Assembly: GCA_038915815.1 (NCBI GenBank)
Contig: JBCLCL010000003.1
Coordinates: 7,015 to 71,014 of the forward strand
Direction of reading: 5' to 3'
Origin: Candidatus Limnocylindrales bacterium
Lineage (GTDB): Bacteria > Chloroflexota > Limnocylindria > Limnocylindrales > CSP1-4
DNA length: 64,000 nucleotides
The notes under the pieces are model-generated. The model was not told the DNA's origin. It did no database searches and saw only the letters and a program-made list of their open reading frames with translations. The position numbers were made by a program, and so were the translations under genes. Of the stretch, positions 24,689-31,586 are shown piece after piece (the first letter of the stretch is position 1; the number at the start of each line of letters is the position of its first letter).

Positions 24689-24764
24689 GCGGGAGTAACT
24701 CAGCTGGCAGAGTGTCTGCTTCCCAAGCAGAATGTCGCGGGTTCGAATCCCGTCTCCCGCTCCA
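24689..24764 (+). tRNA. tRNA-Gly (anticodon CCC)
   Basis: 76-nt cloverleaf. Acceptor GCGGGAG/CTCCCGC, D-arm, anticodon stem TCTGC/GCAGA with loop TTCCCAA, T-arm GGTTCGAATCC, and an encoded CCA end. Confidence 0.9.
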
Positions 24765-24767
24765 CTT
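24719..24767 (+). repeat. attL: 49-bp direct repeat (3' half of tRNA-Gly)
   Basis: cttcccaagcagaatgtcgcgggttcgaatcccgtctcccgctccactt recurs at 29874..29922 with a single mismatch. Confidence 0.85.
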
Positions 24768-25039: not shown

Positions 25040-26119
25040 ATGGCCTACCCGTACGACGGCGAGCCGAACCTACGCCCCGGCGCCGAGCGCGCCGCCCACA
25101 GCCTCGCCCCGCGCTTCGACCCGGAGCTCGCGCTCAACGAGCTGTTCGAGGACTTCCTCGCGGGCTCCGCCTCGCTCATCAACGCACGGACCGAGCGCAC
25201 CTACCGCTACGACTGGGGCCTGTACCGGGCGTGGCTCACCGAGACCGCCACGCCGGCCGTGCTCGGCACGATCACCAAGCAGCACCTCATCGACTACATC
25301 GCCTTCCTCCAGCGCCGGCCGAAGGCCAAGGGCAGGGGCACCCTCTCGTCGCACTCGGTCCACGCCTACGTCCGGGTCATCCGGACGTTCGTGCGCTGGC
25401 TGGTGACCGAGACCTACTACCCGATCGATCCGCTCGCCGGGGGCAAGCGCGGCGCGATGCCGCGTCTCGGGCCGCGCGTGCTCAAGGTCGCCAAGTCGAC
25501 CGACGTCGAGACCCTGCTGGCAGGGTCCGCCAAGGGCGAGGCGCGCGGCGCGATCGAGCGGGCGGGCCGGGGACGCGACGAGTTCATCGTCGTCCTGGTG
25601 ACCGACACCGGGCTGCGCAACAGCGAGGTCTGCGCCCTGCGGGTCGGCGACGTCGACGTGGCCGACGGCTGGGTCCTGGTCAAGGCCGGCAAGTGGGACC
25701 GCGAACGGCGCGTCCCGCTCAGTCGCGAGACGGTCGCGGCGCTGCGCCTCTACCTGCGGCGCAACCGGCCCGTCCTGTCGGGGCGGGCGCCCGAGTTCGT
25801 CGCCGCGGACGACGTGCTCGTGCTGTCGCGGACCGGCGCGCCGCTCACGCCCCCGGGCCTCTACCAGGCGATGGGCCGCGCCTATCGCCGGGGCGGGGGG
25901 ACCGGCCGGTTCGGCCTCCACCGCCTGCGCCACCTGTGGGGGACGACCGCCGCCGAGGGCGGGATGCACCCGCGCATCAGCCAGTCGATCATGGGCCACG
26001 AGGACGAGAAGAGCGAGCGCGTCTACCAGCACCCGTCGGACACCGCGATCAAGCGCGAGCACGCCCGGGTGACGCCGCTGCGCGACCTCGCCCCCGCCTG
26101 TCGCCGGCGGCTCGCGTAG
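25040..26119 (+). CDS. Tyrosine-type site-specific recombinase / phage integrase
   Basis: N-terminal SAM-like core-binding domain. Catalytic-domain motifs (R...HxLRH: GLHRLRHLWGT) and C-terminal Tyr (RVYQHPS). Confidence 0.85.
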   Translation: MAYPYDGEPNLRPGAERAAHSLAPRFDPELALNELFEDFLAGSASLINARTERTYRYDWGLYRAWLTETATPAVLGTITKQHLIDYIAFLQRRPKAKGRGTLSSHSVHAYVRVIRTFVRWLVTETYYPIDPLAGGKRGAMPRLGPRVLKVAKSTDVETLLAGSAKGEARGAIERAGRGRDEFIVVLVTDTGLRNSEVCALRVGDVDVADGWVLVKAGKWDRERRVPLSRETVAALRLYLRRNRPVLSGRAPEFVAADDVLVLSRTGAPLTPPGLYQAMGRAYRRGGGTGRFGLHRLRHLWGTTAAEGGMHPRISQSIMGHEDEKSERVYQHPSDTAIKREHARVTPLRDLAPACRRRLA

Positions 26120-26129
26120 GTTAAAACGG

Positions 26130-27044
26130 TCACGGTTGGGCGGCTTCCTCGGGATTCTGAGGGCTTGACTCGCGAAGGCCAGCGATAGTTGCGTCGGCGA
26201 GGTCTCTGAGGCGTTGAAGCTGCTCTACCACGACGCTGCGCGAGTTGTCCGAGAGATCGCCGCGTTCCCAAGCATCCGACACCTGATCGAGAACGCGCCC
26301 CTCAATAGCCCACGCTTGAGACAGAGTCGCGGTTAGCCGCTCGGCCGACGCGAGATGCTCCTCTCTTGGTTCTCGTCGCCGTTCCTTGATGTCCGCGAGC
26401 AGGTCGCCTCGCCCATTCGCAGACATGATGCCGGCGAGCTTGGCAGCCCCGTCTTGAGCGACCATCGGTCCATGGCGGGTCGCGTGTGCGCACCATCGGA
26501 CCGCGAGTTGCCCTTGCCCCTCGGCATCGAGTGCAACCAGTCGTGACGGCCGAGTCTCCGGGCCGAGTAGAGACGGCAAGTACACCGAAAACGCTCGTTG
26601 GAGCTCGACGATACCGCCGTCGAAGCCCAACTCTTCGTCCGGTGGCAGGGCGAACAAACCGAAGTTGCCGGGCCGCACATCACCGATTTCCGCCGCAGGC
26701 GCTGGTCGCACGGCCGCGAGGACCACCCGACCGCGGGGTCGGCCACCCTCGCGACGACCCTGAAGACTCTCCATCTCGCAATCGTCCGTGAGGATGATCG
26801 CTCGGCGAGGATTGCCGAAGCCGAGCGCTGCGTCACCGAACTCTGCGTGGCTGGCGATCACATCCTTGCCGGGTTCCCGCCCACTGTGCGGTAGCGTCGC
26901 ACGAGGGACGTAAACGACGCTGCCCCCCTTAGGTCGCGGTTCGAGGGCAATCGCATCGTGACGAAGGTAGAGGTCGAAGAGCCAGGTCGCCTCAAGCACA
27001 TCTCCGAAGCCGAGGCGTTCGTCTGGAGCTGGTGTTCGATACAC
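26130..27044 (-). CDS. Hypothetical protein (island cargo gene C, 304 aa)
   Basis: Good codon bias. GTG start 6 nt after the gene-B stop and in the same frame. No domain recognisable by eye. An acidic cluster ILTDDCEMES is present. Confidence 0.55.
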   Translation of the reverse strand: MYRTPAPDERLGFGDVLEATWLFDLYLRHDAIALEPRPKGGSVVYVPRATLPHSGREPGKDVIASHAEFGDAALGFGNPRRAIILTDDCEMESLQGRREGGRPRGRVVLAAVRPAPAAEIGDVRPGNFGLFALPPDEELGFDGGIVELQRAFSVYLPSLLGPETRPSRLVALDAEGQGQLAVRWCAHATRHGPMVAQDGAAKLAGIMSANGRGDLLADIKERRREPREEHLASAERLTATLSQAWAIEGRVLDQVSDAWERGDLSDNSRSVVVEQLQRLRDLADATIAGLRESSPQNPEEAAQP

Positions 27045-27050
27045 CTCCGA

Positions 27051-28217
27051 TCACCGTGTGCGGCGGTCGTAGAGGCTGAGATCGACGCCATAACGGGCGA
27101 GATCTGGCTGCCAAGCATCGATGCCCTCCAGTCCGGCGGCTACTTCTTCCAGCAGCCCAGGCTCGGACGGGACAGCCGGCTGATAGTGGAAGTCGGCCCA
27201 CGCTCGCTCTGACTCGCCCACAAGAAACGCCGACCAGGAATCCTGACCGAACGCCTCATCCCGAAGGATGGCGTCAGCGCGCCGTCGGAACTCAGCAACG
27301 GCCTCGGGCGACATGACGAGTAGAAACTCCCAATCGTCTTCCACGGGATCGCCTTCTTCGACGGCATGGATACTCTTTTCCATCCGCATGGCGGCCGCGA
27401 CTCGTTCCGAAGTTCGGGCATCAACGGTCGGCGCGAGATACCGAATGAACTGCACGATCTTCCCGAAGGCACCTGCCTCGATGATGCCCAGGACCTCGTC
27501 TACCTCGCTGCTGGAAACGGTCGGTCTGACCTCGGTCTCGAGCATCGTTGCTCGATGACGAACGGCGTTGTGGAAGAGACCTTCAAGTTCGTCCAGGCGA
27601 CCCTCCGCCAACAGGTCGGCCACCTCCACCGTGCGCTGACGGCACAGGTCCGCGGCAACCCGCATGTTCCGGGCAGCGAGTCGGTGCAAGAAGGCGACGC
27701 GATCCCCGATGGTGGCGAGCCTCTCTGGAGGAGGTTCCTCCCCCGCTCGAAACTCGTAGTAGCGACGCGTAGACACCCCGATCAGCTTCGCGAGAGCCCG
27801 AGCGCTCAGATTCAGCTCTTGGCGGAGTCGGTCGAGTGCCTCACGAATCGCGGCCGCGGATAGGCCGACAACCTGCTCAGTTGCGGCCGGCAACGTTGGC
27901 TTCGCGATCCAACGGACGGATAGGCTCCGACTTGGCGGGCCGATCTGGGTATGCGCGGCCAGAAGACCGGCCGAGATCGCGCCGGGCGCCGAAATGAAGG
28001 TGGGCGCGCCCTCCGGGTAGATCTCGCAGAATCGGAACGCGACGTCACTTGGATCGGTGGGCCAGAGGAACTCATCAGAGCCCGAGTACAAGCGGTTGAC
28101 CACGTCTGCGTCGAGAAGGGTCCAGTCGCCAGGCTCCGACCGTTCGGTCAAAGGCATCCCATTTGGCAGCGAATGCCGCGCGAGCGCTGGCTCCCACAAC
28201 CCAATCGGTGTCGTCAT
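27051..28217 (-). CDS. Hypothetical protein with central Xre-type helix-turn-helix (island cargo gene B, 388 aa)
   Basis: ATGA overlap with gene A. HTH segment LSARALAKLIGVSTRRYYEFRAG flanked by an unknown N-terminal ~120-aa domain and a C-terminal ~230-aa domain. Confidence 0.6.
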   Translation of the reverse strand: MTTPIGLWEPALARHSLPNGMPLTERSEPGDWTLLDADVVNRLYSGSDEFLWPTDPSDVAFRFCEIYPEGAPTFISAPGAISAGLLAAHTQIGPPSRSLSVRWIAKPTLPAATEQVVGLSAAAIREALDRLRQELNLSARALAKLIGVSTRRYYEFRAGEEPPPERLATIGDRVAFLHRLAARNMRVAADLCRQRTVEVADLLAEGRLDELEGLFHNAVRHRATMLETEVRPTVSSSEVDEVLGIIEAGAFGKIVQFIRYLAPTVDARTSERVAAAMRMEKSIHAVEEGDPVEDDWEFLLVMSPEAVAEFRRRADAILRDEAFGQDSWSAFLVGESERAWADFHYQPAVPSEPGLLEEVAAGLEGIDAWQPDLARYGVDLSLYDRRTR

Positions 28218-28993
28218 TCACCAGTCCCCCCAAGCATCTCGATCGCGGCCGGCGTGATGCTCCGCCGGAAGAGGTTCCAAGCCCATCGATGGTAGAGGTC
28301 AGCGCGTGCCAGCAGCTCATCGACCACGAAAGGAACATGTTGCTCGGTGAAGATGTCGGTATCCATGACATAGGTTGACGGATACTCCGCCCCGGCTGGG
28401 TTCCTCACGAATCCATAAGTCAGGTTGATCCCGTTGTCATCGATTGACATGGACACCTGCTGGATGCTGCGCTTTACACGCGCATCGATCCAAGGAGCGT
28501 TGGCATCGCCGAATAGGCTCGGTGCGATGTACCTCTGCCAATCAGGAACCGCCACCGCCTCCGCGCTCACGATCTCGTCCACGTACCGAATCCCGAGACG
28601 CTCGACACGGGTCACCCGTCCTCGGGCGACGACGATCTCCAAGAGTTCTCGCAGCCGATCCCGAAAGTCGACCCACGAGTCGTAGCGCGTTGTCTCCAAG
28701 CTGGCCATGTCCGGGCCTACGCTGACGACCCAGGTACCCGTTTCATCTCCGAAACGCGCCGGCCCTGGTTGAACGACCGGCGGGATAGGCGCGCCGGGGC
28801 CCGCGACGATCGTCATCTCTTGAATCCGCGGTAGCGACGTGGGGTAGCGCGTCGACAATGCGGTTTGCGTAGCCGCAAGGCCGGTCGGATCCGCCAACGC
28901 GTAGGCCGGTGGAAACCGAATCTGGGCGACCACGACCTTCAGCGGATTCCGCACGAACACGATCCGCTCATGGGTCTCTTGGTCGAATGTCAC
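28214..28993 (-). CDS. Hypothetical protein (island cargo gene A, 259 aa); N-terminus resembles the uncharacterised TIGR04255-type family
   Basis: AGGAGG SD 6 nt before the GTG start. N-terminal motif NPLKVVVAQIRFPP. First gene of the three-gene minus-strand cassette. Confidence 0.6.
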   Translation of the reverse strand: MTFDQETHERIVFVRNPLKVVVAQIRFPPAYALADPTGLAATQTALSTRYPTSLPRIQEMTIVAGPGAPIPPVVQPGPARFGDETGTWVVSVGPDMASLETTRYDSWVDFRDRLRELLEIVVARGRVTRVERLGIRYVDEIVSAEAVAVPDWQRYIAPSLFGDANAPWIDARVKRSIQQVSMSIDDNGINLTYGFVRNPAGAEYPSTYVMDTDIFTEQHVPFVVDELLARADLYHRWAWNLFRRSITPAAIEMLGGTGE

Positions 28994-29048
28994 CTCGAAC
29001 CTCCTGATCGCACATCCATCGCACTAACTGACACAGATCATAGTCGGT

Positions 29049-29822
29049 GTGCGGTTGGCGTGCGTCAAGATGCCGTTGGTCCTATTTGACGATGCGCCCT
29101 GCTTCACACAGGAACTCGCCGAGAGGGCATCTCACCATCGATTTGGCTGGCGAGCGGCGTACGACGAGGCGGTTGCGCTGGCCATCGGCCTCGATGACCC
29201 ATTCCGGCTCGGGATGGTCCTGTCGATGCGGGCGTGGGCCGAGGCCCCGGTCGACCCGGTCGCGGCCGAGGGCTGGCTGGAGCAGGCGGCCGAGGCCGCA
29301 CGCCGGACAGGCAACCCCGGGGCGATCGCCAGCCTCATGCTGATCCGCGGACGCATCGCCAGCGGTATCGATCGGCATTCGGACGCCCAGCGATGGTTCC
29401 GGGAGGCGCAGGCACAATTCCAGGCCGTCGGCGACACGCGGTTGGAGATCTCAGCCCAGAGCGAACTTGCGCATTCGCTCCGCCGCGCCGGCGCCACCGA
29501 CGAGGCCGAGGCGGAGTACCGTCACACGATCCTCGGGTGGCAGCGCAGTGGCAACCGCGGGGCGGTCGCCAACCAGCTGGAGTCGCTCGCGTTCACGGCG
29601 CTGCCCAGGGGTGACGGCGTCCAGGCGGCCCGCCTGCTCGGTGCCGCGGAAGCCCTGCGCGAGGCCGCCAAGGACCCCATGACAGCCTTCGAGCGCGCGG
29701 AGTACGACACCGAGGTGGCGCGTTTGCGCACGCAGCTCGACCCGCAGACCCTGAGTGACGCGGGGGCCGAGGGCCGCGCGCTTTCGATGGATGACGCCGT
29801 CATGTTCGCCATCTCCGGGTGA
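29049..29822 (+). pseudogene. 3' fragment of a large STAND/TPR-type regulator (C-terminal TPR region only)
   Basis: The translation ends ...AEGRALSMDDAVMFAISG, the characteristic C-terminus of actinobacterial ATPase-TPR (AfsR/cyclase-ATPase-like) regulators. No ATPase/N-terminal domains are present. It lies just inside attR. Confidence 0.45.
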
Positions 29823-29873: not shown

Positions 29874-29922
29874 CTTCCCAAGCAGAATGTCGCGGGTTCG
29901 ATTCCCGTCTCCCGCTCCACTT
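29874..29922 (+). repeat. attR: 49-bp direct repeat of tRNA-Gly 3' end
   Basis: 48/49 identity with 24719..24767 (gaatcc vs gattcc). Confidence 0.85.
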
Positions 29923-30015: not shown

Positions 30016-30252
30016 ATGGCGGAGATCGGGGTCAAGGAGCTGAAGGCGACTGCGTCCGCGGTGATCGAGCAGGTCGAGGGCGGTGCCGCATACATCATCA
30101 CCAAGCGCGGCCGCCCCGCTGCGGTCCTGCTGCCGGTCGACGAAGCCGAGGATCTCGTCCTTGCCAACGCCGACGAGTACGTGCGGATGCGCCGCGAAGC
30201 TCGTGCGGCCTACGCCAAGGGTCGGACGACCAGCCTCGGGGATCTCGTCTGA
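30016..30252 (+). CDS. Phd/YefM-family type II antitoxin
   Basis: 78 aa. MAEIGVKELKA... YIITKRGRPAAVLLPVDEAEDL is the canonical Phd/YefM motif. Confidence 0.8.
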   Translation: MAEIGVKELKATASAVIEQVEGGAAYIITKRGRPAAVLLPVDEAEDLVLANADEYVRMRREARAAYAKGRTTSLGDLV

Positions 30253-30939: not shown

Positions 30940-31341
30940 TCAGTCGGGCTCGATCCGTCGAACCGTGGTGACCCGGTCGATCGAGCGGTCGAAGGAGGCG
31001 ATCGTGCCCACCCCGGTTCGCTCGGCCGAGGCGACCAGGTAGGCCTCGGCGAAGTCGAGCCGGTCGTGCTCGTAGACCTCGATCGCCCGGTGCAGGAGGT
31101 CGCGATCGACGACCTCGATCGGGGGAAAGGCCAGGATCGCGCGCAGGATGCCGGCGACGGCGGGACGCGGCGCCTCGTAGTAGGACTCGAGCACGTAGGC
31201 CACTTCGGCGAGGATGAGATCGGCCAGGAGCATTGCCTCGGCGCGCTCCAGGAACCGCGTCGCGCGCTCGGCCTGGTCCGGTGGGTCGCCCGTGACGTGA
31301 CGCACGAGGACGTTCGTGTCGACGAACATCGACGCCGTCAT
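30940..31341 (-). CDS. vapC: PIN-domain toxin VapC
   Basis: MFVDTNVLVRH... with PIN acidic residues. 133 aa. Confidence 0.8.
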   Translation of the reverse strand: MTASMFVDTNVLVRHVTGDPPDQAERATRFLERAEAMLLADLILAEVAYVLESYYEAPRPAVAGILRAILAFPPIEVVDRDLLHRAIEVYEHDRLDFAEAYLVASAERTGVGTIASFDRSIDRVTTVRRIEPD

Positions 31342-31586
31342 GGGCGCTCGGCGGCGCGGGCTCGTCGGGTCTCGCGAAGGACGCCTGACCAGGGTGTGCC
31401 GCGCTTCGCGGCCGGGACCGGGATCGAGCCGGCCAGGGCGAGCAGGTCGGGCGTCCGCGCCAGGACAGCTCGCTCGCCCTCGACTCGAAAGACGACGCGG
31501 TCGCCGTCCTTGAGGTCGAGCGCCTTCCGAACCGCGCTCGGGACCGTGATCTGGCCCTTCGATGTCATGCGCGCCGAGATCTCCAT
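31338..31586 (-). CDS. vapB: AbrB/MazE/SpoVT-type antitoxin (VapB)
   Basis: SKGQITVPSAVRKALDLKDGDRVVF is the swapped-hairpin AbrB motif. ATGA overlap with vapC. Confidence 0.8.
   Translation of the reverse strand: MEISARMTSKGQITVPSAVRKALDLKDGDRVVFRVEGERAVLARTPDLLALAGSIPVPAAKRGTPWSGVLRETRRARAAERP

Follow-up and report, generated by a model that had tools for sequence, protein, structure and literature searches.

Genes B and C of a conserved three-gene cassette on a small tRNA-Gly island are probably separate genes joined by translational coupling

Within the stretch of 64,000 nucleotides that was analysed (the window), three co-directional genes, here called A, B and C, lie on the minus strand between a tRNA-Gly gene and a second copy of the 3' half of that gene. 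The features of this region are as follows.

24689..24764, plus strand: tRNA-Gly(CCC), the integration target (ARAGORN; Rfam tRNA, 68 bits)
24719..24767, plus strand: attL, 49-nt direct repeat of the tRNA-Gly 3' half
25040..26119, plus strand: tyrosine integrase, 359 aa, convergent with C (ORF list; PF00589)
26130..27044, minus strand: gene C, 304 aa, with a GTG start at 27044..27042 (ORF list)
27051..28217, minus strand: gene B, 388 aa, Xre-type helix-turn-helix (ORF list; Pfam)
28214..28217, minus strand: ATGA overlap in which the A stop TGA (28216..28214) lies over the B start ATG (28217..28215), read from the sequence
28214..28993, minus strand: gene A, 259 aa, TIGR04255 family, first in the operon (NCBIfam)
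29000..29005, minus strand: canonical Shine-Dalgarno AGGAGG, 6 nt upstream of the A start GTG (28993..28991), read from the sequence
29049..29822, plus strand: TPR-like ORF, divergent from A (ORF list; faint TPR_12 match in loci L018-L021)
29874..29922, plus strand: attR, 49-nt direct repeat with a 48/49 match to the tRNA-Gly 3' half, closing a 5.15-kb island

The layout is that of islands that target tRNA genes, with a tyrosine integrase and its cargo beside tRNA-Gly and the 49-nt repeat of the tRNA 3' half at the far end, a repeat for which 0 of 100 shuffles gave a match. As in such islands the base composition is below that of the host, both in G+C (62-66% in the island against about 70% in the flanks) and in GC3 (0.66-0.73 against 0.82-0.94 for host genes). 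The integrase was assigned by a match to PF00589 (Phage_integrase) made in the identical loci L019-L021 and then mapped back to the window, and an Rfam scan of the island matched the tRNA alone. On these features the segment is a 5.15-kb integrative island at tRNA-Gly with the A-B-C cassette as its main cargo. Unlike typical tRNA islands it is very small, its whole content being the integrase, A-B-C and the one TPR-like ORF. This last ORF lies outside the conserved cassette, and the orthologous loci have no such divergent neighbour in their gene calls. The cassette has different neighbours at different loci, among them RhuM, AAA_14/DUF4143, SLFN_AlbA_2, a methyltransferase and RAMA.

Gene A matches the NCBIfam family TIGR04255 with 125.1 bits (cut-off 30; E 4e-36) over profile positions 3-249 of 252, and a homologue of A is found upstream of B wherever the contig reaches; a literature search for TIGR04255 turned up no papers. 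Gene B carries a helix-turn-helix at about residues 126-170 (nucleotides 27708..27842), for which the matches to Pfam HTH_3 (E 1.7e-4) and Xre-like-HTH (E 0.012) both lie below the gathering score. The structure model of B is poor (pLDDT 58.6) with the helix-turn-helix core alone being interpretable, and this confidently modelled core resembles the Xre-type antitoxins and repressors NatR, HipB, MbcA, HigA2 and DdrO with E-values of 0.2-1. B evolves faster than A and C. PADLOC 2.0 returned no family for A, B or C at E <= 1, and PDB sequence searches with the three proteins gave nothing meaningful.

Attention was drawn to this cassette by the boundary between B and C, which on the minus strand reads ...CGC ACA CGG TGA TCG GAG GTG TAT CGA... 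and contains the following elements.

27053..27051, minus strand: B stop codon TGA, read from the sequence, its position conserved in orthologues
27050..27045, minus strand: 6-nt spacer TCGGAG between the B stop and the C start, taken to be untranslated (direct sequence reading)
27044..27042, minus strand: C start GTG, in the same frame as B
27048..27045, minus strand: GGAG directly abutting the C GTG, read from the sequence
27055..27049, minus strand: GGTGATC spanning the B stop, complementary to the 16S rRNA 3' tail GAUCACC (duplex -12.5 kcal/mol)

In the ORF list B (388 aa, ATG start) and C (304 aa, GTG start) occupy one frame. The sequence-only reading had described the placement of TGA, TCG GAG and GTG in a common frame, which is borne out on the minus strand, and had put B plus C at about 695 residues, a figure that agrees with 388 + 3 + 304 = 695 codons. 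It had gone on to propose that a nonsense mutation or a sequencing error could have split a single protein into B and C, or that C is made by stop-codon readthrough or by re-initiation, and had asked whether the cassette is a two-gene or a three-gene system. It had further held that the GGAG abutting the GTG was the only Shine-Dalgarno-like element; the GGAG does abut the start, although it is not the sole such element, GGTGATC (27055..27049) having been overlooked. The predicted RNA fold around the junction is unremarkable (z = -1.24), and the conservation of a small hairpin over the C GTG is not clear.

The contigs of 24 loci were fetched and 16 distinct junctions compared, the window (WIN) being counted as one. 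The order A-B-C is kept at every one of the 24 loci whose contig extends far enough; there A is 34-83% identical to its counterpart in the window, B 23-60% and C 30-81%, while over the 16 distinct cassettes the identity of C was put at 30-92%. The (A/G)TGA overlap of A and B was found in 11 of 11 loci checked. The B/C junctions, with the stop of B and the start of C in capitals, are these.

WIN: TGA tcggag GTG, gap 6, in frame
L001: TGA tcgaag GTG, gap 6, in frame
L004: TGA tcgagg GTG, gap 6, in frame
L002: TAA ccgcag GTG, gap 6, in frame
L005/6: TAA tcgatg GTG, gap 6, in frame
L007/16: TGA cctgcg ATG, gap 6, in frame
L009: TAG ccggcc GTG, gap 6, in frame
L010: TAG gcggac GTG, gap 6, in frame
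L003: TGA gcc ATG, gap 3, in frame
L011: TGA gtc ATG, gap 3, in frame
L014/15: TGA ccc GTG, gap 3, in frame
L017: TGA gcg ATG, gap 3, in frame
L012/13: TAG tc GTG, gap 2, out of frame
L008: TAG tc ATG, gap 2, out of frame
L022/23: TGA cc ATG, gap 2, out of frame
L024: TGA c GTG, gap 1, out of frame

A stop is present at all 16 distinct junctions (TGA in ten, TAG in four and TAA in two) and is followed after 1, 2, 3 or 6 nt by GTG or ATG, while the base 3' of the stop varies between T, C and G. The frame is shared at 12 of the 16. The gap at the other four is 2 nt (L012, L008, L022) or 1 nt (L024), and there too both genes are intact. Neighbour-joining on C groups the in-frame loci in a single clade, within which L012 is the one reversal; each of the three outgroup lineages has its junction out of frame. 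On this tree the sharing of a frame is an inheritance within one clade and no conserved property of the family. Two adjacent co-directional genes have a one in three chance of sharing a frame. Among the window's other gene pairs, too, overlapping or very short junctions are common. With four junctions of 16 out of frame and the in-frame state inherited in one clade, the common frame of B and C carries no statistical weight. Selection for the frame, considered in view of the 12 in-frame junctions, was rejected on the same distribution of one clade, one reversal and three out-of-frame outgroups.

Further evidence that B and C are distinct coding units came from protein searches and from codon comparisons. 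A search with C returned 34 close homologues of 42-92% identity, all of 287-336 aa, and one with B returned 12 homologues, all of 357-394 aa. A profile of the C family run against 1.84 billion (1.84e9) representative proteins gave 157 matches, the longest being of 361 aa, and the full-length matches align from their own residue 1-25. No fused B-C protein was found in the collections of 5.8e9 and 1.84e9 proteins, whether among the 34 + 12 close homologues or the 157 representatives, nor did any orthologue contain B and C as one ORF, all 16 junctions being interrupted by a stop. The C-terminal tail of B, GVDLSLYDRRTR, is conserved in alignment through its final residue, and 32 of 34 homologues keep the N-terminus of C (M-Y-R...RLGFGD). 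When the codons of the window were compared with those of four close orthologues, codons 2-16 of C showed 25 synonymous against 5 non-synonymous differences and the last 12 codons of B showed 11 against 4, whereas the two spacer codons showed 0 against 5. The spacer is thus free of protein-coding constraint while both flanks are constrained. Relaxed constraint on a B or C fragment was not found in this comparison, the differences on either side being mostly synonymous.

Four other NCBI assemblies (L018-L021) carry a B that is 100% identical and the identical TGA junction. Their cassette DNA is 99.84-100% identical to that of the window, with 0-5 SNPs (five in L018 and two in L020), all of which lie away from the junction. 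Two SNPs are common to L018 and L020 and leave the B and C proteins unaltered; three more in L018 lie at the 3' end of C, where one pair alters a single residue (A302V).

The strength of the possible start signals was assessed by pairing the 16S tail GAUCACCUCCUUUCU with the 20-22 nt that precede each start codon. For this tail, which is a generic one and may differ in this genome, the median energies are -12.4 kcal/mol for A (12 loci), -9.8 for B and -5.3 for C, and the AGGAGG of A in the window forms a duplex of -12.4 kcal/mol.

The reading that we favour, with a probability of roughly 0.8, is that A, B and C form a conserved operon of three genes, B and C being separate, and that C is made by translational coupling, that is by termination-reinitiation. 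This mode of starting is proposed for C because the short distance from stop to start and the conserved start codon are common to the lineages, most of which have no 16S-complementary element. Translational coupling calls for co-directional genes with a conserved overlap of stop and start, or a conserved distance of no more than about 10 nt between them, and here a gap of 1-6 nt was found at 16 of 16 junctions. On this reading the TGA at 27053..27051 is the true stop of B, and C is translated from its own GTG at 27044..27042. A alone has a ribosome-binding site that is both canonical and correctly spaced, and the start of B lies within the stop of A in the ATGA overlap. A ribosome finishing B would most likely remain on the mRNA and restart at the GTG 6 nt on, possibly aided in the window's lineage by pairing of GGTGATC with the 16S rRNA across the stop. 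Translation of C would in this way depend on translation of B, and the level of C, which may be a toxin-like effector, would be tied to that of B, which may be a helix-turn-helix antitoxin or regulator. Re-initiation is the best supported of the four alternatives listed by the sequence-only reading, and its question as to the number of genes is answered by a three-gene system (A, B and C). That reading had expected genuinely separate genes to show in orthologues as two genes with a proper intergenic ribosome-binding site; the two genes are there, but most orthologues lack the site.

Termination-reinitiation at overlapping or closely spaced stop-start pairs has been shown in E. coli, Haloferax and M. 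tuberculosis (PMC6728339, PMC11260477). In the coupled operon pairs (PMC6728339), of which uPPE2-PPE2 of M. tuberculosis is one (PMC11260477), the genes are co-directional with the start within a few nt of the stop, the second gene frequently has a weak Shine-Dalgarno and the arrangement is kept in orthologues, and B and C are alike in each of these respects. The pairs that have been studied experimentally are mostly 1- or 4-nt overlaps (UGAUG, AUGA); the A/B overlap is of the classical ATGA form, whereas the B/C gap is 1-6 nt. The B/C junction is ordinary operon coupling of a known kind and opens no new question.

An alternative that we consider unlikely, though it fares best among the rivals, is that free ribosomes start C independently at GGTGATC (27055..27049) or at GGAGGTG, translation of B being unneeded. 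GGTGATC is a perfect 7-nt complement of GAUCACC and is placed about 9 nt from the GTG in the canonical GGAGG register, a Shine-Dalgarno spacing within the working range. The duplex energies of this stretch in the window, L001 and L004, where it is present, are -12.5 to -16.7 kcal/mol (-12.5 in the window and -16.7 in L004), and it may be a ribosome-holding or Shine-Dalgarno-like element for C in the window's lineage. However, it is weaker or absent elsewhere, pairing before C being only -1.9 to -5.7 kcal/mol in L002, L003, L011, L012, L014, L017 and L022, and C is nonetheless kept. Its letters are moreover largely set by the last Arg codon of B and the stop. The two modes are in any case not mutually exclusive, as coupling and de novo initiation can coexist (Huber et al. 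2019, PMC6728339). In the window's subclade the strong GGTGATC could support independent initiation, with coupling then needless there.

Of the bacterial stop codons TGA is the leakiest, and together with the frame shared by B and C in the window and at 12 of the 16 distinct junctions this could be taken to favour programmed readthrough, or selenocysteine insertion, at the TGA, giving a functional 695-aa B-C fusion beside B alone. We regard this as very improbable. B and C are intact at the four out-of-frame junctions, so C cannot depend on readthrough, and selenocysteine is excluded by a stop that is TAA or TAG in six lineages. Neither a frame kept across orthologues, nor a constant UGA, nor a conserved downstream RNA signal was found among the junctions compared: the in-frame state belongs to one clade with one reversal and three out-of-frame outgroups, the stop and the base after it vary, the spacer codons are unconserved, the local fold has the z of -1.24 given above and the island holds no recoding RNA family, the tRNA being the only Rfam match. 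Separately from any such programme, the 12 in-frame junctions could give a low level of B-C fusion through leaky termination.

That one B-C gene was recently broken by a nonsense mutation, or that the TGA is an assembly or sequencing error, has in its favour only the shared frame and the poor GGAG-to-GTG spacing and can practically be dismissed, both forms of this proposal being refuted by a stop that is conserved, as any of three codons, in cassettes down to 30% C identity, by the lack of a fused homologue among 5.8e9 or 1.84e9 proteins, by the conservation of the B tail and the C N-terminus right up to the boundary, and by the identical junction in four other assemblies, with 0-5 SNPs in other parts of the cassette.

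The possible function of the cassette is a matter separate from the junction. In the AF2 model of C (pLDDT 81.5, pTM 0.73) a beta domain at the N-terminus (residues ~1-172) is followed by a C-terminal helical bundle. In a Foldseek search of the PDB with this model the top 12 matches were all MazF toxins (E 2e-3 to 1e-2, with MazF matches reaching 1e-1), with a probability of ~1.0 and a target-normalised TM of 0.58-0.69. C was assigned to no family in Pfam, NCBIfam, PADLOC or PHROGs, and none of the 34 members has a Pfam match; when the C profiles were aligned by hhalign to two approximate MazF sequences, the probability was below 1%. A BFVD search of viral folds with C returned nothing, and a scan of the genome contigs with the C alignment found no relatives. 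The profile searches gave no support to the resemblance to MazF seen by Foldseek, and the model of C is weakly suggestive of a MazF-like fold. The family has the conserved motifs TDDCE and CAHxTRHGP, and the picture of C as part of a module would comprise a MazF-fold-like domain fused to a helical bundle, the DDC and RxGP motifs being invariant.

In type II toxin-antitoxin systems whose toxin has the MazF/PemK fold, a helix-turn-helix gene lies immediately upstream and is tightly coupled to the toxin gene, and B and C (the latter by Foldseek) are alike in this. Also as in type II toxin-antitoxin operons, the cassette is on a mobile island and occurs in varied contexts, with B evolving faster than C. 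B and C differ from these systems in protein size, being three times larger (388 and 304 aa), and in having a third conserved gene beside them, A (TIGR04255). Unlike in MazF operons, the C profile does not match the two MazF sequences compared, C belongs to no family and B has only the sub-threshold helix-turn-helix. The predicted structures and gene arrangement suggest that the cassette may be a mobile toxin-antitoxin-like or defence-like module in which coupling would tie synthesis of C to that of B. Going further, and as a tentative proposal that we hold to be more doubtful than probable, A-B-C might represent a toxin-antitoxin or defence module of three components, as yet undescribed and spread by small integrative islands, the near-zero spacer between B and C preventing C from being made without B. 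In a rarer extension of the module reading, leaky termination in the in-frame clade may yield a little tethered, regulatory B-C fusion. The cassette, uncharacterised, conserved and lying on a minimal 5-kb island, is a reasonable candidate for a new system of toxin-antitoxin or defence type.

Annotations and models of the cassette should have three genes, the start of C being the GTG at 27044. This is worth stating as gene callers mishandle C: automatic calls skipped it in two of the four near-identical assemblies, whose cassettes differ from that of the window by 0-5 SNPs, and picked a downstream start for it in two other loci.

The cassette of three minus-strand genes (A, encoding a TIGR04255 protein; B, an Xre-type HTH protein; C, a protein of weakly MazF-like fold) lies with the integrase and a TPR-like ORF in a 5.15-kb integrative island delimited by a pair of 49-nt repeats. 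The G+C content and GC3 of this island are lower than those of the host genes. Its surroundings are rich in toxin-antitoxin genes, among them some just beyond the repeat at one end (attR).

24719..24767 and 29874..29922: direct repeat, 49 nt, 48/49 match, copies of the 3' half of tRNA-Gly(CCC)
30016..30252, plus strand: PhdYeFM-type antitoxin ORF, just beyond attR
30940..31341 and 31338..31586, both minus strand: MazE-like/PIN (VapBC-type) pair with a 4-nt overlap, just beyond attR
26130..27044, minus strand: C; residues noted are D87, D88, C89, E90, H187, R190, H191, G192, P193, K202 and W245

Further PIN genes were seen close by in the gene calls of L018-L021, four assemblies in which the locus is identical or nearly so. 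Although these share the same cassette, their content differs past the integrase and the tRNA (locus coordinates about 9200 onward), with a BNR_4 protein in L018, PIN genes in L019 and L020 and SHOCT genes in L021. This difference suggests that the tRNA is either a variable integration hotspot or the site of tandem islands.

The N-terminus of C is conserved and begins at a GTG or ATG just after the stop of B. Automatic annotation nevertheless omitted the intact C ORF from the gene calls of both L018 and L020 (7174..8088) and placed its start 15 codons too late in L021 (6206..7075) and in the homologous locus L002 (5001..5867), probably because C has no standard ribosome-binding site. In L009, another such locus (contig WBZO01045386.1, 1686..1946), the C ORF ends after 86 codons while similarity to C runs on to residue 229; the early stop reflects a frameshift, gene decay to a pseudogene, or an error in the contig.

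The family of C carries no annotation. Its TDDCE and CAHxTRHGP motifs show no variation among 34 close homologues, and D87, C89, R106, R190, G192, P193, K202 and W245 are nearly invariant in 68 distant family members, making the conserved residues candidates for catalysis or binding. Despite a prediction of disorder (pLDDT below 50), the C-terminal tail of B (residues 350-388; 27051..27167) is conserved over its final 12 residues, GVDLSLYDRRTR, right up to the terminus. Tails that bind a partner, such as those of antitoxins, typically show this pattern.
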